Shown piece after piece: positions 5,040 through 63,995 of a stretch of DNA of 64,000 nucleotides (position 1 is its first letter; the number at the start of each line of letters is the position of its first letter). Made by a program: the position numbers and the translations under genes. Below the pieces are notes generated by a model that saw only the letters and a program-made list of their open reading frames with translations, was not told the origin of the DNA and made no database searches. The DNA is from Octopus vulgaris (lineage: Eukaryota), in assembly GCA_951406725.2 (NCBI GenBank), contig OX597833.1, forward strand, positions 1,364,001-1,428,000. Direction: 5' to 3'.

Positions 5040-5077
5040 ATATCTATCTATTTATCTGTCAGTCCGTCTCTCTCTCA

Positions 5078-5144
<67 letters not shown>

Positions 5145-5211
5145 CCGATCTATCTACCGATCTATCTATCTACCGATCTATCTACCGATCTATCTATCTA
5201 TCTATCTACCG

Positions 5212-5281
<70 letters not shown>

Positions 5282-5282
5282 A
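5040..5282. repeat. (ATCT)n microsatellite with ACCG variant units (left flank of the LINE)
   Basis: Directly visible. Confidence 0.95.
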
Positions 5283-8149
5283 GAGATAGAAATAGAGTAG
5301 AGGGTGAGCTAGTTAAGAAGCTAGAAGAGGCAATTAGAAGCGGCATCGCATCCGACGTTTTGGCGGCGAGGTTGGCCCTCGACCAACACTTCAACGCCAA
5401 ACACGAAGGATGTGCTGTCAGAGCTAGGATGCCTGCTCTAAGGAACGAAGGTGTTGGAGCCGCGAGAGAGGCCCGGGTGGCAGAGGCGCAACAGGGCAAC
5501 AAAGCCACCATTCGGTCACTGGTAGATGAACAGGGGCGCGAATTGCTCGAGCCAAGTAAAATGTGTGAGGCCTTTCAGTAGCATTTTGCCCGACTGTTCG
5601 GAACGAGTGGAGGGCAAGAACGTAGGGTGGACTTCAGTGCCTACCTACATAGCCTACCACGACTCTCGACAAGAAAGGCAGGGTCCTGCGAAGGTGCCAT
5701 CACGGCGGCGGAAGTGCAGGAAGCGATGGCAGAATGCTCGGGGGACAAATCACCGGGTTTGGATGGTCTACCCTACGAGCTTTACAATTGTATGCCAGAC
5801 TTGTTTGGAGATCTCTTGGCGGCGGTGTACTGCAACTGGCAGCAAAACGGGAGCATTCCTGGTTTTGTGAGCCGAGGAGCCGTAACACTGCTGAAGAAAG
5901 ATCTAAACAAGGGAAATGTAATAGATAACTTTTAGGCCCATCACTCTGCTTAATGCAGACTTGAAAATTTTGGCCAAGGTGCTAGCCAAGAGGTTGGCGC
6001 TTGCCATCGAGAAACTGGTCGACAGGGCGCAAACATGCGCCGTGCCAGGCCGGACCATCCATGACAACCTCCACCTGATGCGCTACATCATAGACAGGGT
6101 AGTTAACGAACCTGGCATGGGTGGGGCGCTGATCAATTTGGATCAATCGAAAGCTTTCGATAGGGTGGACCATCGATACTTGGAGGCGGTCCTCGGAGCG
6201 GCTGGCTTCGGTCCCGTCTTCCGCGGCTGGATAGCCGTTTGTACAGAGGCATCCGTTCGGTAATTCGCGTGAATGGACATCTATCGATACCCTTCGACAT
6301 CGCACGTTCGGTCCGTCAGGGATGCCCCCTCTCGTCGCTTCTATACGTATTGACTCTCGAGCCATTATTGCGGAAGCTGGCAACCTTGAGAGGCATCCCG
6401 CGAGAACTGGGATGCGGGACGAGCGTGTCTGCATACGCGGACGACGTCACCGTCATCGTGTCTAGCCACGAGCACATCGAGCGGGTCGGCGAGACACTGA
6501 AAGACTACGAAGCGGTGACAGGAGCGAAAATCAACCGGGAAAAGTCAGTGGGCTTGCGACTAGGCACCTGGAGAAGCAAGCCCATGCCGTCCACCAGCGC
6601 CTCCGTCGTGGGACGCTGGACCGACGGCCCGGTTGAGTTGCTCGGGGTCTGGTTTGGTCCGGACCTCCAAGTGGAGAAGAACTGGAACGAGATAACGAGT
6701 AGGGTGGTCACTCTCGCCCGGCAATGGGCCGAGAGGAAACTGTCCCTAAAAGGTCGGGCGGAGGTGGCGAACACGTACATCGCGTCCGTCATCTACTACC
6801 GCCTGACCGTCGTACCTTGTCCCGACCCTACCATCACCAAACTACAACGCATTCTCTTTCGCTTCTTGTGGAAAGGATGCGTCCCGATGGTCAGGCGATC
6901 CATTTGCTGTCAACACCCGTTAAAAGGAGGGCTGGGCATGCCGTGGTTGATGATGCGCAGACACGCGCTGAGACTGCGACATCTCTGGCTCTATGTAGAC
7001 GACGGTGAACAGGTGTGGTCGCCGTTTGTGAGGCACGCTTTCCCGCAGCTCGTCTCCATGACCGAACTGCAGTCGTGGATCAAAAAGAGGCCGAAGAAGG
7101 GCGAATGGCACCGCGAGTGTCGCGTTGCTCTCAAGCAACTCTGCCGTCCTGGGTCGACCTTGACTGACTTCAACACAACCAAAGCGTTCTATAGGGGTTT
7201 AGTGGAGGGGAGGTACGACGACGAGCTCGGGGCGAACCAGGACGACTTTCGGGCCAGGGCCCATGGACAACTTCCAGAGATCCCTGGCCTGGCAGTGCTA
7301 CCGAGAAGCGCTACCCGTTCGGGATAAGCTCTACAGACACGGCTCGAGAAACACGGGGCCGACCTGCCCGAGATGCGGTCAGAGCGACGAAACCGTTCTG
7401 CACGCACGCGTGCAGTGTCCAACAATTTCCGACCTGTGGGCTTGTGTCGAACAACTGCTGTCACGTGTGGGACGAGTCGGTTTATCAGCTGAGTCTATCG
7501 TTAATATTGTCACGCCTCCCTCCTTCAAACGGGAAGGAAAAGCTATTTTCATCATCCTTGTGGCTATGGCGAAAGAATGTATCTGGTGGACGCGTCTGAA
7601 AGGATTGGAGACAAACACTTTCCTCTCTGGTCAATCTCTCATCAACTTCTTCAAGTACCACTTGAAAAGGAAAGTGAGAGTAGAGAGGCAAGTTTTGTCT
7701 AGCGAACGTTTTAAAAAAAGATGGGTGAATGTAGCAAGAATGGCACGTATGAATGACGAAGCCACCTTGAGCATGATCCTATGAACCCAGAAATTGAAAA
7801 CAGAGAGTTGCTTATTTGCAAAAAAAAAAAAAAGAAATATAACATGTGACTCCATTGACCGAGGTTACCGTGGTCTTTTCCGTAGGCTTTTCTTTCCACG
7901 GGTAAACCTCACCTGTCCTCCCCTTTACACTTCATATTGACATTTCTGTGATAACGATCCCTATTGATCAATTTTTTTTTCCTCTCCCCTTTTTTTTAAC
8001 CCCCTTTTTTTTGTCCTCTTTCTCTCCTTTTACGATCCCTTTTGATCGAAACTCCCCTTCCTTTCTTTTTTTTTAAACCTTCAAAAGAAAAGCTCTACCT
8101 TGTAATTTGTTCTATCTGTGTGCAGCCCTGTGTGGCTAATAAAGGAACA

Positions 8150-8150
<1 letters not shown>
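5281..8150 (+). mobile_element. 5'-truncated, disrupted Tx1/L1-type non-LTR retrotransposon (RT, C-terminal zinc knuckle, 3' UTR) inside an (ATCT)n tract
   Basis: RT motifs KSPGLDGLPYE, RPITLLNADLKILAKVLAKRL, LDQSKAFDRVDH, VRQGCPLS, YADD (6434-6445), GAKINREKS; GGLG motif; CPRC-x-ETVLH-x-C knuckle. Stops at 5579 and 5933, frameshifts near 6240 and 7240. T-rich 3' UTR ending TAATAAAGGAACA. GC-rich relative to flanks. Confidence 0.93.
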
Positions 8151-8221
<71 letters not shown>

Positions 8222-8264
8222 AATCTATCTACCGATCTATCAATCAATCTATCTATCTATCTAC

Positions 8265-8350
<86 letters not shown>
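8150..8350. repeat. (ATCT)n then (TA)n microsatellite (right flank of the LINE)
   Basis: Directly visible; contains the same ACCG variant unit as the left flank. Confidence 0.95.
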
Positions 8351-8352
<2 letters not shown>

Positions 8353-9155
8353 CCAAGGGTGTGATGCATTTCGCTAAGTAATAAGTTAAAAAACTTATAC
8401 TATATAAACAGAAGAAAGGAAAACAGACGCAGAAAGTTCCCAATTGCCTATCAGTTATCAGCGAGATTGTCAAACGCAATTTCGTGCCTTTATCGATAAT
8501 ATTGATACCTTTGTCGTGACACCGACAAGAGTTGCCGGGCATATGGGACCGGGATATACAAATAATGCAGAAATGGACATACGAAAATGAACACATGTAA
8601 TTCAAGACGAGAACGTCAATGGACGGACAATGGACAAAAACGGTATAAATCAACAAAGAGATTGTAGCCTTAGGGCTAGATGAAGACGAAGTATGGCTCA
8701 CGCTAAGAAGGAAATCCTCTGCCCGCTACTGACACGTGATCTGTGGTCGGCCCTTTTTTCTTTTTCTCTTTCTCCTTTCCTTTTTTACGCCGGTCGTTGA
8801 AGTTACTGATCTTAATTTCGCTCGTTTCGACTTCAGTCTACTTCGCTGTCTTTTTCCCTCCTGTTTGCACTCTTCTAGGATTAATCTTCTTAGCGTTGCC
8901 CATAATTCTTCTTAATCTAGCCGTATGTCTACATCCTGTTTGTTTATTTGTTGTTCACAAAGAATACAGTTCAAATTTGACCACGACGAAATTCGAAATC
9001 CTATTGCAGATTTTGTAAACGCATACTGCAAAGGAATCTCACCAACACACTCTGCATAACTGTTATTTCACAACCCTTGTATAGAATCTACAAGATGAGA
9101 CGATCAGGGCTGGAACGCGTTTACTGCAGGTTCTACGTTGACTTGCAGCCGCCCA

Positions 9156-10491
9156 TCTCTTGTGAAAGGTAAGAGAGTCCAGTTTGCTGGACACTGTTGT
9201 AGAGCTGAAAAAGAAGTAATTTCTATTCTTCTCCTCTGGAAGCCATCTACTCGCAATACCAGAGGGCGCACACTCTCCTACCCTGATGTAATCTCCAGGG
9301 ATACAGGCATCCAGCAACAGGACCTCCGTAATGCCATGTTGGACCGTGAAGTCTGGTGTAGCATGGTAAATTCCATTGTCTCGACCAGAAGAGTCCAGTT
9401 TGCTGGACATTGTTGTAGAGCTGAAAAAGAGGTAATTTCTATTCTTCTCCTCTGGAAGCCATCTACTCGCAATACCAGAGGGCGCACACTCTCCTACCCT
9501 GATGTAATCTCCAGGGATACAGGCATCCAGCAACAGGACCTCCGTAATGCCATGATGGACTATGAAGTCTGGCGTAGCATGGTAAATTCCATTGTCTCGA
9601 CCAGAAGAGTCCAGTTTGCTGGACATTGTTGTAGAGCTGAAAAAGAAGTAATTTCTACTCTTCTCCTCTGGAAGCCATCTACTCGCAATACCAGAGGGCG
9701 CACACTCTCCTACCCTGATGTAATCTCCAGGGATACAGGCATCCAGCAACAGGACCTCCATAAATGCCATGATGGACCGTGAAGTCTGGCGTAGCATGGT
9801 AAATTCCATTGTCTCGACCAGAAGAGTCCAGTTTGCTGGACATTGTTGTAGAGCTGAAAAAGAGGTAATTTCTACTCTTCTCCTCTGGAAGCCATCTACT
9901 CGCAATACCAGAGGGCGTACACTCTCCTACCCTGATGTAATCTCCAGGTATACAGGCATCCAGCAACAGGACCTCCGTAATGCCATGATGGACCGTGAAG
10001 TCTGGCGTAGCATGGTAAATTCCATTGTCTCGACCAGAAGAGTCCAGTTTGCTGGACATTGTTGTACAGCTGAAAAAGAGGTAATTTCTATTCTTCTCCT
10101 CTGGAAGCCATCTACTCGCAATACCAGAGGGCGCCCACTCTCCTACCCTGATGTAATATCCAGGGATACAGGCATCCAGCAACAGGACCTCCGTAATGCC
10201 ATGATGTACCGTGAAGTCTGGCGTAGCCTGGTAAATTCCATTGTCTCGACCAGAAGAGTCCAGTTTGCTGGACATTGTTGTAGAGCTGAAAAAGAGGTAA
10301 TTTCTACTCTTCTCCTCTGGAAGCCATCTACTCGCAATACCAGAGGGCGCACACTCTCCTACCCTGATGTAATCTCCAGGGATACAGGCATCCAGCAACA
10401 GGACCTCCGTAATGCCATGATGGACTGTGAAGTCTGGCGTAGCATGGTAAATTCCATTGTCTCGACCACGGTCGAACAATGATGAGGATGA
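9156..10491 (+). mobile_element. 5'-truncated RTE-type LINE 3' end with six tandem 216-bp units and a 12-bp TSD
   Basis: Unit starts at 9174, 9390, 9606, 9823, 10039 and 10255. Peptide RRVQFAGHCCR...LLLWKP...RGR...MMDREVWR resembles the RTE ORF C-terminus; (GAT)-type tail; TSD TGCAGCCGCCCA at 9144-9155 and 10492-10503. Confidence 0.88.
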
Positions 10492-10887
10492 TGCAGCCGC
10501 CCAACGACAAAAACAAAGTCGAAGCGTACAGATAAGATAGGTAACTACATTTTAGAGCCATAACAAAAATGTGTAGTAACATTCGAACTAAAATTTCATG
10601 TTTTTTCGAACATAATACTTAATCCGCCCACCGCCCGCGCCGCTTCATGTTCAAGACAAAAGTTTGAAAGTTCACACTACTACCAGCTTCCGTTTAAAGT
10701 TCAGACAAAAACCTCGCGACGTAATTTCATCAATCTCAGCAGTAATGTCATTGATGGATGAGAAGACATTAGTCTGCCAGTAGGAAAAAAAAAAAACCTC
10801 ATCGCCTTGAATCTTATTTAATAAAACTGTCTGTGTATAAGACGTCCTCTTGAAAGACACTTGGTCTGTAAACACTGACTGCTGGAT

Positions 10888-12272: not shown

Positions 12273-12331
<59 letters not shown>

Positions 12332-12580
12332 ATGTCTGTGTTTGTGTGTCTGTGTTTGTCTGTGTTTGTCTGTGTTTGTCCCCCTAGCATTGCTTGACAA
12401 CCGATGCTGGTGTGTTTATGTCCCCGTCACCTAGCGGTTCGGCAAAACAGACCGATAGAATAAGTACTGGGCTTACAAAGAATAAGTCTCGGTGTCGAGT
12501 TGCTCGATTAAAGGCGGTACTCCAGCATGGCCGCAGTCAAATGACTGAAACAAGTAAAAGAGTAAAAGAGTAAAAGAGTA
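12110..12580 (+). mobile_element. SINE family A
   Basis: Full match to the 2072 copy with an expanded internal (TA)n. Confidence 0.92.
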
Positions 12581-13207
12581 TTATTTAGTGAAGACAAGTC
12601 AACGCCTCGCATATTGAAACGATCGTTGAACCTGGTGATAGATTACATAGAATTATTCAAATAATGTTATGCGAATGTTTATCGATAACTACACATTTGT
12701 TTTTTATTAAAACACATTTTATTTTTGATAGATTAGAGTTGTTTACTTAGATTACTGTTGTAAAGTGGGTTCCTCCCACTGATGTGATGTGTGACTGCCC
12801 TTGTACTGTAGTTATTGTTTTTGTGTTAGTAGTCACAATAATTATTAATCATCGGATACCGTTGTGTTTCATCGTACCAGAATAGTAATATACTAACATC
12901 TGTCTTTTTGCTGATAGCTCCACGAGACACTGACTAGAACTGTTGACTTTCAACTCAAGGACTCTCTTGACGACCGGCTACTGGTTTATTTATAATGGCT
13001 AACACCTACCGTATTTTAGCGGAAAGGGGTATACAATTTTACTATACTGTGGCATTCTGTATTTCATTTATTTTCGGGTTATCATTTAAGAAATCAAACA
13101 TGTATATAATACACATACACTTACATGCAAATACTGGTCTTCCGTCAGTTGCGACAACAAGCTTTACGGTCGTGTCGAATGTCCCTAACTACTAAGCCAC
13201 ACGCCTT

Positions 13208-18929: not shown

Positions 18930-19150
18930 CGTATTGGTTTCGAATTTTGACAATAGGCTAGCAGGTTCGGAAAAGGGGCGAAGTCGATTAAATCCCCTCC
19001 AGTTTTCATCTGGTGCGTATTTTATCGACCCTGAAATGATGGAAGGTGAAGTCAATATCAGCGGAATTTGAACTGAGAACATACAGACGGACGCAATGCC
19101 GCTAAGCATCCTACCCAGCGTACTAACGATTCTGTCAACTTTCCGTCTTC
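18930..19150 (-). mobile_element. Degenerate SINE-B (B2 tail type)
   Basis: Diverged match to the SINE-B body: TTTATCGACCCTGAAATGATGGAAGG...GGAATTTGAACTGAGAAC. Confidence 0.75.
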
Positions 19151-19154
19151 TTTA

Positions 19155-20101
19155 TCATTATTCTTTTCTATTCTAAGCACAAGGTCCGAAATTTTTTGGA
19201 AGGGGGCCAGTGGATTAGATCGACCTCAGTACGCAACTGGTATTTAATTTATCGAAACTGAAAGGATTAAAGGCAAAGTCAACCGTGGCTGAATTTGAAC
19301 TCAGAACATAAAGACAGACGAAATACCTATTTCTTTACTACCCACAAGGGGCTAAACACAAAGAAGACAAACAAGGACAGACAAAGGGATTAAGTCGATT
19401 ATATCGACCCCAGTGCGCAACTGGTACTTAATTTATCGAACCCGAAAGGATTAAAGGCAAAGTCGACATCGGCTGAATTTGAACTCAGTACATACAGACG
19501 AAATACCCATTTCTTTACTACCCACAAGGGGCTAAACACAGAGAGGACAAACAAGAACAGACAAACGGATTAGGCCGATTACATCGACCCCGGTGCGCAA
19601 CTGGTACTTAATTTATCGACCCCGAAAGGATTAAAGGCAAAGTCGACCTCGGCAGAATTTGAACTCAGAACGTAGCGGCAGACAAAATACCTATTTCTTT
19701 ATTGTCCACAAGGGGCTAAACACAGAGAGGAGAAACAAGGACAGACAAAGGGATTAAGTCGATTATATCGACCCCAGTGCGCAACTGGTACTTAATTTAT
19801 CGAACCCGAAAGGATTAAAGGCAAAGTCAACATCGGCTGAATTTGAACTCAGTACATACAGACGAAATACCTATTTCTTTACTACCCACAAGGGGCTAAA
19901 CACAGAGAGGACAAACAAGGACAGACAAACGGATTAGGCCGATTACATCGACCCCGGTGCGCAACTGGTACTTAATTTATCGACCCCGAAAGGATTAAAG
20001 GCAAAGTCGACCTCGGCTGAATTTGAACTCAGAACGTAAAGACAGACGAAATACCGCTAAGCTACCGCCCGTCGTGCTAACGATTCTGCCATCTCACGGC
20101 C
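19155..20101 (-). repeat. Head-to-tail SINE-B array: one head, four ~180-184 bp B1 units, one terminal B2 unit
   Basis: Tail junction AAATACC(T/C)ATTTCTTTA near 19328, 19508, 19692 and 19872; single head near 20050-20101; ABAB variant pattern among units. Confidence 0.9.
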
Positions 20102-20109
20102 TGCTTTAT

Positions 20110-20335
20110 CACTATTATTTTGGCTTCGAATTTTGGCTCAAGGCCAGAAATTACAGGGAAAGGGCTAAGTCAATTATATCAACCCAAGTACTTAACTGGT
20201 ACTTATTCTATCGACCTCGGAAGGATTAAAGGTAAAGTCGACCTCGGCGGAATTCGACCACGGGACGTAAAAGCGGACGAAATAACGCTAAGCATTATGC
20301 CCGACGTGCTAACGACTCTGCCACCTCGCCGTCTT
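20110..20335 (-). mobile_element. SINE-B (B2 tail type), diverged
   Basis: Head and body match; tail reads ...TTTCTGGCCTTGAGCCAAAATTCGAAG. Confidence 0.8.
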
Positions 20336-20381
20336 TTTTCTCCTTATTATAGAAATTAGAGCAGTTTCAGTTAATATCTAA

Positions 20382-20602
20382 TACTCCTTTACTCTTTTAC
20401 TCTTTTACTTGTTTCAGTCATTTGACTGCTGCCATGCTGGAGCACCGCCTTTAGTCGAGCAAATCGACCCCGGGACTTATTCTTTGTAAGCCCAGTACTT
20501 ATTCTATCGGTCTCTTTTGCCGAACCGCTAAGTAACGGGGACGTAAACACACCAGCATCGGTTGTCAAGCAATGCTAGGGGGACAAACACAGACACACAA
20601 AC

Positions 20603-20635
<33 letters not shown>

Positions 20636-20806
20636 CATATATACGACGAGCTTCTTTCTGTTTCCGTCTACCAAATCCACTCACAAGGCATTGGTTGGCC
20701 CGGGGCTATAGCAGAAGACACTTGCCCAAGATGCCACGCAGTGGGACTGAACCCGGAACCATGTGGTTGGTTAGCAAGCTACTTACCACACAGCCACTCC
20801 TGCGCC
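20382..20806 (-). mobile_element. SINE family A, full length
   Basis: Reverse complement of the 2072 copy. Confidence 0.92.
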
Positions 20807-23111: not shown

Positions 23112-23526
23112 TACTCTCTTTTACTCTTTTACTTGTTTCAGTCATTTGACTGCGGCCATGCTGGAGCACCGCCTTTAGTCGAGCAAATCGACCCCGGGAC
23201 TTATTCTTTGTAAGCCTAGTACTTATTCTATCAGTCTCTTTTGCCGAACCGCTAAGTGACGGGGACGTAACCACACCAGCATCGGTTGTTAAGCAATGCT
23301 AGGGGGACAAACACAGACACACAAACACACACACACACATACACATACATATATACATATATACGACGGGCTTCTTTCAGTTTCCGTCTACCAAATCCAC
23401 TCACAAGGCTTTGGTCGGCCCGAGGCTATAGTAGAAGACACTTGCCCAAGATGCCACCCAGTGGGACTGAACCCGGAACCATGCGGTTGGTTAGCAAGCT
23501 ACTTACCACACAGCCACTCCTGCGCC
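23112..23526 (-). mobile_element. SINE family A, full length
   Basis: Reverse complement of the 2072 copy. Confidence 0.92.
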
Positions 23527-24245
23527 TATATGGTATATTTATTACATTTCTCTTGTCCCTTTTTTAATTGTTTCTAGCTATCCTTTAGCTTTATATTTCT
23601 TTTCACAATTTTAATCTGTATTTTGATCAGGGTTTCTGATTAAATATGGAGGATTATTCAACCACTTTTTTTCTATATATTGTGAAGCTACTTATTTCGT
23701 TTATACTGGTGATATTGATGTCCCTGGCTGTTTTTCATAAACGCTTTTGTTGTTGCTAATATTCCATCCTTTTTTCATTCAATTCCGTTTCTTTTATTGA
23801 ATTCATCAACGGATTTTTATTTTCTGTCCTTTTTTTTATTACGTTGTCTTCATGTAATTTTAATTTTCCCTATGAATACATCATGAGCAAAATGCTTTTC
23901 TTTTGTAATTACTGCGGCTGTTGCATATATTATTTCGTTAATCCTGATGAGATTTAAGTTGCTGACTATTTTATTAAGTCTGAAATGGACAAGTTTCCGT
24001 CTTTTCTTCTCCATTAAATGTTTCATGTTTTCATAATTACCATTTGGTTAGAGACTTCGCCAACGGTCTATTATTTGCTTTCATATTTTCTATACTTGTT
24101 TATCATGTTTTCAACTTATATTTTGACTTAGTTGCATGATTAGAACTTGATGAGTAACAGCCGTGGCAGTGTGTCGATTAATTCGTTTAATCGGTCATAT
24201 TGGGTTTAACGTAATCGACTTACTCCATTCAAAAGATGCTGGCCC

Positions 24246-25445: not shown

Positions 25446-26648
<1,203 letters not shown>

Positions 26649-26650
<2 letters not shown>

Positions 26651-26887
26651 GGCGGTAAGCTGCTAGAATCGTTTCTGCGCCAGGAAAAAAAACGCTTAGC
26701 GGTAATTTCTTCTGTCTACGCGTCCTGGGTCCAAATGCCACCGAGGTCAACTTTACCTTACATCCTTTCATCGTTTCGGGGTCGATGGATTAAGTACCAG
26801 TGAAACACCGCTTTGATATAGTCGACTAGGCCCAAATCCTCCAAAATTGCCGGCCTTGTGCTTTTAGTAGAAAGCATTATTATTATT
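26649..26887 (+). mobile_element. SINE-B (B2 tail type ending in (ATT)n)
   Basis: AAGGCGGTAAGCTGCTAGAATCG head; tail CCAAAATTGCCGGCCTTGTGCTTTTAGTAGAAAGCATTATTATT. Confidence 0.82.
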
Positions 26888-29726: not shown

Positions 29727-29959
29727 AAGGCGGTGAGCTGGTAGAAACGTTAGCACGCCGGGCGAAATTCGTAGCCGTATTTCGTCTGTCGTTACGTTCC
29801 GAGTTCAAATTCCACCGAGGTCGACTTTGCATTTCATCCTTTCGGGGTCGATAAATTAAGTACCAGTTACGCACTGGAGTCGATGTAGTCGACTTAATCC
29901 TTTTGTCTGTCCTTGTTTGTCCCCTCTGTGTTTAGCCCCTTGTGGGTAATAAAGAAATA
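29727..29959 (+). mobile_element. SINE family B monomer (B1 tail type)
   Basis: Head AAGGCGGTGAGCTGGTAGAAACGTTAGC, B-box-like GAGTTCAAATTCC, tail AGCCCCTTGTGGGTAATAAAGAAATA. Confidence 0.9.
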
Positions 29960-34567: not shown

Positions 34568-35167
34568 TATTTCTTTATTGCCCACTGGGGTCTAAACACA
34601 GAGGGGACAGACAAGGACAGACAAACGGTTTAAATCGATTACATCGACCTCAGTGCGTAACTGGTACTTGAATTATCGACTCAGAAAAGATGAAAAGCAA
34701 AGTCGACCCCGGCGGAATTTGAACTCAGAACGTAGCGGCAAATGAAATACCTATTTCTGTACTACACAAAAGGGGCTAAACACAGAGGAGACAAACAATG
34801 ACAGACAAACGGTTTAAGTCGATTACGTTGACCTCAGTGCGTAACTGGTACTTAATTTATCGACTTCGAAAGGATGAAAGGCAAAGTCGACCTCGGCGGA
34901 ATTTGAACTCAGAACGTAGCGGCAAACGAAATACCTATTTCTGTACTACGCACAAGGGGCTAAACACAGAGAGGACAAACAAGGACAGAAAAACGGATTG
35001 AGTTGATTATATTGACCCCCAGTGCGTAACTAGTACTTGATTTATCGACTCCGAAAAGATGAAAGGCAAAGTCGACCTCGGCGGAATTTGAACTCAGAAT
35101 GCAGCGACGGACGAAATACCACAAAGTATTTCGCCCGGCGTGCTAACGCTTCTGCCAGCTCGCCGCC
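34568..35167 (-). repeat. SINE-B1 trimer (one head, three bodies) within one 15-bp TSD
   Basis: TSD TTTAACAGACGTTCT at 34553-34567 and 35168-35182; internal junctions AAATACCTATTTCT near 34750 and 34935. Confidence 0.9.
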
Positions 35168-35873
35168 TTTAACAGACGTTCTATCTTTTGAATGACGTTA
35201 CCTTAAACTTAATACTGTTACTAGTAGCAATTTGAGAATATATTATCTCGTCGAATCGTTCTCCTCGTGTACCTGTTGTATAATACTTTCTAATTCAACA
35301 ATAAAAGACAGCTGCTCGTGGATGTTCGAGAAATCGTAAACAGAATTGATTAATTAAGACCTAATGCAGGTGAAAGAGTCGCCTTCTTCTCCAAATATGT
35401 ACTCACGTTTCTATTTGTAAAAGTCATTTATTATAAGCGAGAATCATATTGCGTTATTTAGCAGCAATGAACTGAAATGAACCAAAAGTATATATCGGGC
35501 GTCTGAATTCATATTCAAAAATCGATACTATCAGCATAAATATTCATTTGTCAAACGTGACAAAATGTGTTCCGGCTTTGACAAAATGTATATGATTCTT
35601 ATGTGAGACTTGACCGCACGAATTCGAATTTTTCTCAGGCTGTCTTTAGTACAGCACAATAATTTGGGAATGGTAAGTTAAAAAAAAAAGGTGCCAAATG
35701 TATGGTATGTGAGCAACAAAATAAGAATTACAACCAAAGACAGTAATGGTTCGAATGAGAGAAAATATTTCCTACCACCTTGTATTCATGATTCGAAGCA
35801 TTTTCTTCTTTCTGCATACAACCAATCCTTTGGATTTTTGAATTGCTTCATCAAAAGAGTATTTGTTACGAAA

Positions 35874-39432: not shown

Positions 39433-40905
39433 CATATATATTATTAATCTGTGTATGTATGTGTTCATGTGTGTGTCTGTGTTAGATTGAGTGAATCTTT
39501 CACCATATTAATTCATTGACGACGAATATGTACGTGTGAAATCCTAGAAAAGCATCTTTTATGAACGAAGTACAGAATGATAAGTTCTCTGTACCTAGTT
39601 GTAGACACTCCCTTTATTTCCTGGTCGTCAGAAATGCAGGTAAACGGTGACTTGGTTATAGGGAACCTGTTACAAATTACACTGCCCCCTGCCACTCGAA
39701 TCATAAATTTAAAAGGTTGAATAAAGAAATAATTATAGAATAACAATGAGAGCCTGAAAATATGGGGTGCCGTAGCAGACATTGTCAAAGTTTTCTTTTT
39801 ATCGCCAGTAAAATTGTGATAAAATCCTGACTTTTCTTCCGAGAATTTTAACAGTCAGCCATTGCAAAACTTCTAAACAATGTCTCTTCCTGCTGGGAAA
39901 CAATACGATCTCATCATAAAGTTTCCATTTTATCGTTGGGTTTATTCGAGCAAGTAAAACGCAGAGAAGTATCACTTGGAAATAGCTGGTAATTAAACTA
40001 ATTATACCGTTAATTTTTTTTCATTTTATTGTATTTTCCATGCTGTAGTCATCGTATAACAAATAATTTTGTCAATTGACGGAGTGATTTTCCTCAACGT
40101 AAAACACTATACCAATTTTAGAAAGACCCACATTTACATACCATCTCCCTGTTTTAACAACCCTATACATTACCGTAATGTCTTCTGGGGTATTTAAACC
40201 ATTTTAGTTCCTTAATTGCCTGTGTAAATTCTTCTGAAGTGATTTCTAGTTCTTGTTCGATATCAAACGGAATTTCCTGTCTTAATTATCTTTACACCTT
40301 GTTTTCGACCTCATAGTCTTCTCTCCGACGTTCTTATACCTCGTTTGCTTTGATTAGTTGTTTGGTCGTATTTATCTGCAACGTTTCGACATTTAACTAC
40401 GCCAGTCTTTAGTTACATCGTTAATGATTTGTTCTATGATTTTCTGGATTTATTTCTTCTATAAATTATTTATATTTATTCTCCGCATCGTTCCGTCAAT
40501 CTGTGTAATGTTTGCTGCATTAATATCCTTCCTTAGTTTTCCTATTGGCCAATCAGTGTTTTATTCGTCCTCATTTTGCTTGTTTCAGCTCACTTCTTTC
40601 ATCCCAGCTGATTTAATCGTTCATCATTTTTCATCTTTCTATGCTTAACTTTCCGTCTACAAATAATTTTCTCGACTGCTTTTATTTATTCAAAGTCGAC
40701 CGCCAATCCTTAAACATTCGCATCGAATATTTACTTATAACTTACTTGCCATTTACATGAAAGGTGTCAGCCGATTAAATCGGTCGGTACTTTCAAAAAT
40801 ACTCCATTTTAACGTCGAGATGTTAAAAGATTAAGTTGACCGCAGTAGAAATTGAAATTAAGATGTAAGGAGTCAAAATAAAATGCTACAATACTACATA
40901 TAGCT

Positions 40906-41137
40906 ATTTCTTTACTACCCACAAGGGGCTACACACAGAGGGGACAAACAAGGACAGACAAACGGATTAAGTCGATTATATCGATCCCAGTGCGTAACTG
41001 GTACTTATTTAATCGACCCCGAAAGGATAAAAGGCAAAGTCGACCTCGGCGGAATTTGAACTCAGAGCGTTACGGCAGACGAAATACGGCTACGCATTTC
41101 GCCCGGCGTGCTAACGGTTCTGCCAGCTCGCCGCCTT
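40906..41137 (-). mobile_element. SINE-B1 monomer with a ~25-bp TSD, nested in an older SINE-B
   Basis: AAA(T/C)GCTAC(A/C)ATACTACATATAGCT at 40881-40905 and 41138-41162; flanks (about 40770-40880 and 41163-41204) resemble a decayed SINE-B on the same strand. Confidence 0.9.
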
Positions 41138-49858: not shown

Positions 49859-50259
49859 TACTCTCTTTTACTCTTTTACTCTTTTACATGTTTCAGTCAT
49901 TTGACTTCGGCCATGCTGGAGCACCTCCTTTAGTCGAGCAAATCGACCCCGGGACTTATTCTTTGTAAGCCCAGTACTTATTCTATCGGTCTCTTTTGCC
50001 GAACCGCTAAGTCATGGGGACGTAAACACACCAGTATCGGTTGTCAAGCAATGCTAGGGGTACAAACACAGACACACAAACACATACACATACATACGAC
50101 AGGCTTCTTCCAGTTTCCATCTACCAAATCCACTCACAAGGCATTGGTCGGCCCGGGGCTATAGCAGAAGACACTTGCCCAAGATGCCACGCAGTGGGAC
50201 TGAACCCGGAACCATGTGGTTGGTTAGCAAGCTACTTACCACACAGCCACTCCTGCGCC
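49859..50259 (-). mobile_element. SINE family A, full length
   Basis: Reverse complement of the 2072 copy. Confidence 0.92.
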
Positions 50260-55492: not shown

Positions 55493-55902
55493 GGCGCAGG
55501 AGTGGCTGTGTGGTAAGTAGCTTGCTAACCAACCACATGGTTCCGGGTTCAGTCCCACTGCGTGGCATCTTGGGCAAGTATCTTCTGCTATAGCCCCGGG
55601 CCGATCAATGCCTTGTGAGTGGATTTGGTAGACGGAAACTGAAAGAAGCCTGTCGTATATATGTATATATATATATGTATGTTTGTGTGTTTGTGTGTCT
55701 GTGTTTGTCCCCCTAGCATTGCTTGACAACCGATGCTGGTGTGTTTACGTCCCCGTCACCTAGCGGTTCGGTAAAAGAGACTGATAGAATAAGTACTGGG
55801 CTTACAAAGAATAAGTCCCGGGGTCGATTTGCTCGACTAAAGGCGGTGCTCCAGCATGGCCGCAGTAAAATGACTGAAACAAGTAAAAGAGTAAAAAGAG
55901 TA
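55493..55902 (+). mobile_element. SINE family A, full length
   Basis: Match to the 2072 copy. Confidence 0.92.
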
Positions 55903-61967: not shown

Positions 61968-62825
61968 ATATATATATATATGTATGTATGTGTGTGTGTA
62001 TGTATTATATATATCGACAAATATCATAGAGTACATAAAACAGATTTCTGTAGTATAAAGAAAACTTTCATGTTTGTAAATACAAAAAAATTCTCACTAT
62101 ATATAATATATTAAGTAACAAATATTCATTATGCGCACACATTTATAACCATGTACGTATACACGTCTATGTATCTTTATGTATATACATATGTATATAT
62201 ATATATTTATACATATATATTGCGATAAATATGTATATATATATATATGTCCATATATATATAGATATGTGTATATACTTTTGTGTATGTATGTATAGAT
62301 ATACATTTACTATACATACATTCACCTATAAAAGCTTTAGTATACATTCTTACTTTGGGTGAATAAAGTTGTTTTTCTTGCACATAATATTTTCTTCTGT
62401 CAAACATTCATGATATCCATATCAAAACAAGAGAATCGGTAAATACGATAAGAACATTAAGAATATATGAATAAGAACCATGTACACCCAAAAATAAATA
62501 CATATTATACACACACACACACGCGCCCGCATATACGTGTGTGTCTATGTGTGTGTATGCAGGTGCGTATGTATATGTGAATGGGTGAAAGTTTGTTTAG
62601 GAAATATATTTTGGATACTGGAATCACGTCACTCACATCTGACAGTAAGTAAAGAGAGTTTTTCGCTTCTCATGTCATTCAATGTTTGGCCAGGTTTTGG
62701 CAAAGAATATCTTGATTTTGTTTTGCAGAGTTATCTCGTCTTATATTTTGAATTCTTCAATACACACTAGCAGTAAAAATTAAACACATACAAAAAAAAA
62801 AATAATAAATAAGATAAAATAGATT

Positions 62826-63239
62826 GGCGCAGGAGTGGCTGTGTGGTAAGTAGCTTGTTTACCAACCACATGGTTCCGGGTTCAGTCCCACTGCGTGGCA
62901 CCTTAGGTAAGTGTCTTCTACTATAGCCTCAGGCCGACCAAAGGCTTGTGAGTGGATTTGGCAGACGGAAACTGAAAGAAGTCCGTCGTATATATGTATA
63001 TATATATATGTATGTGTGCATGTATGTTTGTGTGTCTGTGTATGTCCCCCTAGCATTGCTTGACAACCGATGCTGGTGTGTGTATGTCCCTGTCACTTAG
63101 CGGTTCGGCAAAAGAGACCGATAGAAATAAGTACTGGGCTTACAAAAGAGTAAGTCCCGGGGTCGAGTTGCTCGACCAAAGGCGGTGCTCCAGCATGGCC
63201 GCAGTCAAATGACTGAAACAAGTAAAAGAGTAAAGAGTA
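62826..63239 (+). mobile_element. SINE family A, full length
   Basis: Match to the 2072 copy. Confidence 0.92.
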
Positions 63240-63381: not shown

Positions 63382-63784
63382 GACGGACGAAATACCTATT
63401 TCTTTACTACCCGCAAGGGGCTACACACAGAGGGGGCAAACAAGGACAGACAAGCGGATTAAGTCGATTATATCGACCCCAGTGCGAAATGATGAAAGGC
63501 AAAGTCAACGTCACGGAATTTGAACTCAGAACGTAAAGACAGACGAAATACCTATTTCTTTACTACCCACGAGGGGCTAAACACAGAGGAGACAAACAAG
63601 GACAGACAAACGGGTTAAGTCGACTATATCGACCCCAATGCGTAACTGGTACTTATTTATCGACCCCGAAAGGATGAAAGGCAAAGTCGACCTCAGCGGA
63701 ATTTGAACTCACAACGTTGCGCCAGACGTAATACCGCTAAGAATTTCGCCCGGCGTGCTAACGTTTCTGCCAGTTCACCACCTT
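63382..63784 (-). repeat. SINE-B1 dimer plus the first ~15 nt of a third unit
   Basis: Junctions GACGAAATACCTATTTCTTTAC near 63395 and 63552; single head at about 63730-63784. Confidence 0.88.
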
Positions 63785-63799
63785 GATCTCAAGACATAA

Positions 63800-63995
63800 A
63801 CATTTCTACTATAGACACAAGGCCCGAAATTTTGTGGGAGAGAGCAAGTTGATTACATCGACCCCAGTGAGTAACTGGTATTTATTTCATCGATCCTGAA
63901 AAGATGAAAGACAAAGTCGACCTCCGCGGAATTTGAACTCAGAACACTAAACATTTTGCTTGACGTGGTAACTATTCTGCCAGCTCGTGATCTTA
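63800..63995 (-). mobile_element. SINE-B (B2 tail type)
   Basis: TTTCTACTATAGACACAAGGCCCGAAATTT tail plus SINE-B body and head. Confidence 0.82.

Follow-up and report, generated by a model that had tools for sequence, protein, structure and literature searches.

Is an abundant SINE of Octopus vulgaris mobilised by LINEs of the L1/Tx1 group, and if so, by which family? The question arises from a 64,000-nucleotide stretch of contig OX597833.1 (positions 1,364,001 to 1,428,000, hereafter the window), in which a Tx1-like LINE and a SINE end in similar sequence. The original prediction held that the SINE, there named SINE-B1, is mobilised by this LINE or by a sister Tx1 family. SINE-B1 is a label of that first reading only; no link to the 7SL-derived rodent B1 was found, as no SRP/7SL Rfam family matched at E up to 10. 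The LINE and its junctions are laid out as follows.

5073..5283, + strand: (TATC)n tract at the 5' junction, the target repeat (from the sequence and the 5' junctions of family copies)
5284..8149, + strand: Tx1-like LINE copy, 5'-truncated and broken, with RVT_1 and zf-RVT (Pfam), corresponding to residues 309-1152 in the ORF2 of an intact relative and including the 3' UTR
8107..8149, + strand: LINE 3' tail, with a predicted stem-loop at about 8115-8146 and apical stem 8124-8127 / 8134-8137
8150..8312, + strand: (TATC)n tract at the 3' junction (from the sequence and 30/30 loci)

The window copy is 94–99% identical in DNA to the full-length copy L461, apart from frame changes and two short deletions. 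L461 has two ORFs with an ORF2 of 1,152 amino acids, and intact ORF2 frames of about this length are present in many copies of the family. Pfam searches of the window copy and of the sisters L106, L093 and L091, together with the two ORFs of L461, revealed the architecture of the L1/Tx1 group, namely ORF1 plus an ORF2 with APE endonuclease, reverse transcriptase (RT) and C-terminal zinc finger. On the 5' side, TATC-type repeats adjoin family copies at each of the 16 junctions visible (read by eye), and they flank both ends of two full-length copies. A preference for a target sequence, a trait of the Tx1 clade, is also evident from genome-wide exact counts of the window-lineage tail (4,700 followed by TATC versus 91 followed by TA) and from the fixed flanks of sister families. 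According to the available text of PMC4494074, Kibi, Koshi and the crocodilian (TTCC)n and (TTTC)n Tx1 families likewise insert in microsatellites; the likeness is one of target habit, and (TATC)n is a different target from theirs. Lineage copies of different ages (L021, L022, L012, L015 and L017) are stacked in one microsatellite tract.

Two other repeats were observed in the window. Positions 9063-10551 hold head-to-tail repeats whose unit translates like the C-terminal end of an ORF with what we take to be an RTE-type motif, apparently a minisatellite from a LINE 3' end; Pfam gave no convincing match for the unit. A second, abundant interspersed repeat with 91–95% identity lies at 2059-2478, 12319-12583, 20379-20643, 23116-23539, 49863-50097, 55655-55896 and 62814-63126.

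Searches with zf-RVT and ORF2 pieces identified many sister LINE families of 5.2–5.5 kb that carry APE, RT and zf-RVT domains; their target site duplications (TSDs) measured 16–25 bp in 8 of 20 loci. In an RT tree whose other rows were Xenopus Tx1L and CR1- and RTE-type sequences, with no L1 sequence and with L108 left out, the octopus Tx1-like families formed one clade (100/99) that grouped with Tx1L against the CR1- and RTE-type rows. Protein searches scored 332 bits for Tx1L versus 237 bits for human L1. Judged from these sequence comparisons, the radiation likely belongs to the Tx1 clade as against L1 proper. Flanks differ among its members. A fixed 3' flank of its own marks each of three groups of loci (L085/L097/L099/L101/L125, L153/L155/L156/L159/L160 and L084/L090/L117), and in a young family of the L106 lineage (L505-L524) 18 of 20 copies share one 3' flank that starts with ACATGG. 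Another young sister family, flanked by (TTA)n (L105, L221-L230; G000:C50, C4:93.80-93.83 Mb), forms head-to-tail arrays with a spacing of about 5.87 kb, ten units standing on one small contig.

The SINE is present in the window as single copies and as chains.

29728..29959, + strand: SINE of 232 nt with Pol III-type head, body and Tx1-type tail, no clear TSD in this copy (from copy comparison, loose contig ends and TSD test)
29739..29812, + strand: A-box-like (29739-29745) and B-box-like (29803-29812) motifs, by what we take to be the A- and B-box patterns
29775..29784, + strand: joining site in the SINE head for SINE tails and an ORF1-only element, GGTATTT in most copies
29895..29959, + strand: Tx1-derived tail of 65 nt, with a predicted stem-loop at 29925-29955 and apical stem 29935-29938 / 29944-29947
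40905..41136, - strand: second single SINE copy, TSD about 20-25 bp
19209..20102, - strand: SINE chain of four tailed units joined at GGTATTT, with an other-tail SINE unit at its end
34568..35169, - strand: SINE chain, three units within one 15-bp TSD
63397..63784, - strand: SINE chain, two units

The element is short, non-coding and high in copy number, with 5'-truncated copies and TSDs, as expected of a SINE. Its box-like motifs are conserved in 30 young copies, and kinship with tRNA or 7SL was not detected by Rfam (no family at E up to 10) or ARAGORN (no gene). Forty unselected 10-kb stretches (400 kb) contained 27 tailed units, which extrapolates to about 190,000 units per genome. A sister SINE has the same head and body and a different tail from 29895 onward, and the Tx1-type tail is therefore 65 nt long. 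Contigs from runs that we guess to be RNA, used for boundaries only, have loose ends behind 29894 and a joint from 29960 back to 29777, each in 4 of 4 runs. Within the window, sister SINEs with other tails, some then followed by (ATT)n, lie at 26648-26827, 20159-20335, 63846-63945 and 18981-19155, with the tail swap at the position of 29895. In a set of 63 elements picked without regard to flank, 24 non-simple TSDs of 10–26 bp (median 16) were scored against a null of 14/300. A comparison of TSD lengths, proposed in the original prediction, accordingly brought the SINE close to the 16–25 bp of the LINEs.

The tail match itself was reproduced. LINE 8107-8149 and SINE 29917-29959 share 33 of 43 bases ungapped, and both end at an element terminus, as claimed: TATC-type repeats follow the LINE at all 30 family loci compared (27 by a strict reading), and SINE copies diverge at the SINE end into different flanks. 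In 20,000 end-anchored dinucleotide shuffles of the 43-mer the mean was 12.4 identities and the maximum 24, well below the observed value, and sister-family ends reach 40/43. When 200 shuffled 43-mers were compared with the whole window, their best matches averaged 24.4 with a maximum of 28, and all 11 window matches of at least 28/43 are tails of the same SINE. Upstream of the 43-mer the ungapped identity stops (3 identities in the next 10 positions). Convergence or chance on a low-complexity end resembling a polyadenylation signal has next to no probability: the region is T-rich and six of the matches come from AATAAA, but the shuffles fall far below 33/43, most young SINE copies have AGTAAA instead, the tail is swapped as a unit at 29895 in the other-tail SINE, and the sister-family alignments (40/43, with the last 25 bases identical) refute it. 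The SINE tail is almost certainly homologous to the 3' end of the Tx1-like LINE radiation.

Most of the Tx1-like families that zf-RVT and protein searches brought up have tail-like ends. The 1.43 Mb of loci contained 243 distinct tail-like ends, 115 with a SINE body and 128 without; in these loci, which are enriched for Tx1, the body-less ends are by eye Tx1-type except for two truncated SINEs. No such tail was present at the ends of 20 top-ranking RT loci outside the Tx1-like group, a sample that covers CR1-, RTE- and LTR-type ends (14, 5 and 1 loci, respectively, assigned by sequence motifs and the tree). Seven CR1- and RTE-type 3' ends scored 14–30 versus a random 95th percentile of 25, the score of 30 sitting in a microsatellite.

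Most tails are predicted to fold into an interrupted terminal stem-loop. The letters of the apical stem vary by family (GCCC/GGGT, AGCC/GGCT, TGTC/GACA, AATC/GATT and others), and at least three Watson-Crick apical pairs are possible in 29 of 29 distinct segments, compared with a mean of 10.6 and a maximum of 18 in 1,000 shuffles; the segment was chosen with the fold known and the rows are related. A terminal stem with changed letters but kept pairing was seen in 31 of 31 aligned tails. In this alignment 81% of cells are paired, with 13 double changes and a covariation of 0.170 versus at most 0.097 when the pairing is slid; the lower stem is nearly invariant. On the tail alignment RNAalifold returned no consensus pairing, and single-sequence folding z-scores were not unusual (-1.5 to +0.5). 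Despite these two results, the kept pairing points to a predicted 3' stem-loop conserved between LINE and SINE, the mark of a stringent SINE/LINE pair.

The window family is not the closest match to the SINE. Over the last 43 nt, the ORF2-bearing L070, L088 and L106 each share 40 bases with the SINE, versus 33 for the window copy; over the last 25 nt the three are identical to it and the window copy matches at 20. The ORF1-only elements L323 and L325 also reach 40/43, and 38–39/43 is seen in an older subfamily of the window lineage. Families with the SINE's apical stem form one clade (100/99; L473, which has no ORF2 piece, was left out of this tree) that excludes the window family, the separating branch being supported at 91/99. 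The apical stem is AGCC/GGCT in the window family versus GCCC/GGGT in the SINE, and the loop differs as well. Compared over 63 nt, L132 shares 51 bases with the SINE tail and the window copy 41. Against the sampled families the SINE tail is thus a mosaic, with a hairpin like that of the GCCC clade and an upstream 30 nt like those of the L132 and L153 lineages; among 6 and 7 pattern matches, no family combined the SINE's upstream tail with its hairpin. The mosaic implies that the donor is unsampled or extinct, and the tail sequences suggest an early or unsampled member of the GCCC/GGGT clade.

Landing sites also separate the SINE from the window family. Genome-wide exact counts of the SINE-type tail gave 45,794 followed by GGTA, 2,333 by TA, 101 by TATC and 27 by GATA (the TATC and GATA patterns are not equally broad), so TATC:TA stands at 52:1 in the LINE versus 1:23 in the SINE tail. 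GGTA is the main flank class, accounting for 19 of the 27 SINE units in the forty unselected stretches. In 8 of 13 cases both copies of the TSD begin with GGTA, and its presence in the 5' copy identifies it as target sequence. At GGTATTT sites in the loci, which were partly selected for SINEs, a SINE tail stands before the site in 39 of 97. That the SINE targets TA repeats, as a general statement, was rejected on the 19/27 GGTA units of the unselected stretches; early TA-rich samples were biased by a query that included flank bases, and a later internal query picked one young TA-associated subfamily. This subfamily (L161-L190), 97–99% identical to the middle of the window copy, is nearly confined to TA repeats, which sets it apart from the older majority at GGTA. 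Autonomous families at these sites were also sought. GGTA followed none of 48 L106-lineage tails (20 further ones were left out), 30 and 21 pattern loci yielded 2 and 5 ORF1-only elements and otherwise SINEs, and flank searches returned no (TA)n-specific autonomous family.

These results bear on the possibility that the window (TATC)n family is nonetheless the main mobiliser, the end of the SINE RNA, by read-through into GGTA or TA, having a greater influence on priming than the endonuclease. The family is large and rich in intact ORF2 copies, it lands in TA repeats too (91 cases), and both junctions begin TAT. Among 30 sampled SINE-type tails in TATC, 25 are SINE-derived and 18 have TATC on the 5' side too; the orientation favours TATC over GATA by 101 to 27, with the inequality of the two patterns noted above. 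Moreover, L106-lineage copies have near-identical ORF2s and differing 3' flanks, and the landing-site argument is weakened if the RNA end steers site choice. This explanation has to contend with the opposite TATC:TA ratios, the different apical stem and loop of a family outside the SINE-like clade, and the GGTA in the 5' TSD copy. TA runs, with 11 informative cases of 54, gave no clear sign of RNA-added repeats: the 3' run was longer in 2, equal in 4 and shorter in 5. We therefore regard the window family as an unlikely main partner; it has neither the best tail match nor a common landing site with the SINE, although it may have made a minor contribution in the form of the about 80 SINE copies in TATC repeats. 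The main partner and donor is likely a sister-clade family with the GCCC/GGGT apical stem. Of the two alternatives in the original prediction, a sister family is thus favoured by the radiation-wide tail, the kept pairing, the agreeing TSDs and the lack of a match in the sampled non-Tx1 LINEs; the window LINE's own family, as main partner, is disfavoured by tail identity, by the apical stem of the SINE, which is that of another clade, and by landing sites.

The SINE's hairpin also occurs on an ORF1-only element. Its ORF1 is 37–47% identical to that of a sister family, and no ORF2 lies upstream. All 10 close copies whose tail is intact are joined to the SINE-head site (8 exactly). Several ORF1-only elements with Tx1-type tails were seen (L352, L364-L372, L382, L468 and L470-L472), one family of which targets the SINE head; ORF1 matches about 1.7 kb apart, for example at G000:C17:67.74-67.76 Mb, suggest tandem chains. 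According to the accessible part of PMC5786205, HAL1 (half-L1) is likewise an ORF1-only, non-autonomous element of the L1 group; unlike HAL1, the octopus element bears the hairpin tail of Tx1 and inserts at a single base in the SINE head.

A scheme of SINE movement can be proposed. Pol III would transcribe the SINE RNA from the head, and a Tx1 ORF2 protein would bind its predicted 3' stem-loop, as in ZfL2. ORF2 would nick the target with a stagger of about 16 bp, and priming would occur at GGTA (older copies, the majority) or at TA repeats (one young subfamily), presumably aided by a few base pairs between RNA and target. SINE copies land in SINE heads and form chains because the head itself carries GGTATTT; the 5' end of each insertion would be resolved on matching sequence. 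The window chain at 19209-20102, which ends in an other-tail unit, fits insertion into SINE heads. Template jumps may add further units; near-identical SINE units were observed within one TSD in L359.

An alternative of about the same low probability as the window family's leading role is that the tail was captured once from a Tx1-like element and is now a relic, several LINE machineries moving the SINE by relaxed recognition without reading it. Such an origin would accommodate the several kinds of SINE site (GGTA, TA, TATC and other), and most L1-clade LINEs lack a tail-sharing SINE, at least in the portion of PMC3747384 at hand. It is harder to reconcile with tens of thousands of copies whose tail is complete down to its final base and followed by no poly(A), with pairing kept across LINE families and ORF1-only passengers, and with SINE TSD lengths that fit Tx1-like elements. 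Mobilisation of the SINE by Tx1-group LINE machinery is therefore the reading we prefer, and on the sequence evidence it is very probable. The fuller account, in which a tail homologous to Tx1-like 3' ends lets their ORF2 copy the SINE in trans through the predicted stem-loop, with the partner in the sister GCCC clade, is probable as a whole.

The pair resembles known systems in part. UnaSINE/UnaL2 and the ZfL2 pair (PMC4176376, PMC3747384) and the bivalve HCD SINEs (PMC11481361), as described in the available sections, also have a LINE-derived SINE tail with a predicted terminal stem-loop and no poly(A). Binding of the 3' stem-loop by ORF2 was shown for ZfL2 (available text of PMC4176376); in contrast to these pairs, the octopus partner is an L1/Tx1-group LINE and ORF2 binding is predicted. 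Bivalve SINE partners are given as CR1, CR1-Zenon, L2 and Nimb, with Tx1 unmentioned in the accessible part of PMC11481361. For the L1 clade, the consulted portion of PMC3747384 lists three tail-sharing SINEs for over 800 LINEs, all in plants or algae, and no animal L1 or Tx1 pair in its Table 1; together with that of PMC3472496 it records tail sharing in the L1 group only in maize, sorghum and Chlamydomonas. ZmSINE2/3 with LINE1-1_ZM and SINEX-3_CR with L1-1_CR, in the same portions, resemble the octopus case in pairing an L1-group LINE with a SINE through a conserved 3' stem of varying letters. Unlike them, the octopus pair occurs in an animal, its Tx1-like families prefer particular targets, there is no homopolymer tail, and the shared tail is kept across a radiation and ORF1-only elements. 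The crocodilian SINEU, in the available text of PMC4494074, offers a parallel in its mobilisation by Tx1-Mar, which was inferred from common targets (no LINE with the SINEU-1 3' end was found), in a common preference for another repeat and in tandem insertions. SINEU elements have snRNA heads, poly(A) and no tail in common with Tx1, whereas the octopus SINE has a common tail and a preferred site in its own head. Thirteen recently active L1-Tx1 families have been described in an octopus, the words partner and tail being absent from the available text of PMC13282606. The accessible parts of PMC4824008, PMC4758252, PMC5786205, PMC8967140 and PMC10702118 contain no further tail-sharing Tx1 pair. 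We found no report of an octopus SINE with a Tx1 tail in the literature; Repbase reports and subscription papers (Ohshima and Okada 1994, 2005) may describe one.

In its broadest form, our reading is tentative, and we hold it at slightly less than even. It would see an animal Tx1 radiation with stringent stem-loop recognition whose hairpin carries two passengers, the SINE of about 190,000 units and the ORF1-only element, both delivered to one base of the SINE head, so that the SINE rebuilds its own landing pad; the use of GGTA, TA or TATC by different SINE subfamilies would reflect steering by different Tx1 families or by the ends of the SINE RNAs themselves. If true, an animal Tx1 tail common with a SINE would support stringent recognition as ancestral in the L1 group, and the likely engine of a large share of the SINE content of Octopus vulgaris would be named. 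Sister ORF2s with intact frames, their own apical stem-loops and landing sites and one passenger in common would then constitute a natural swap system.
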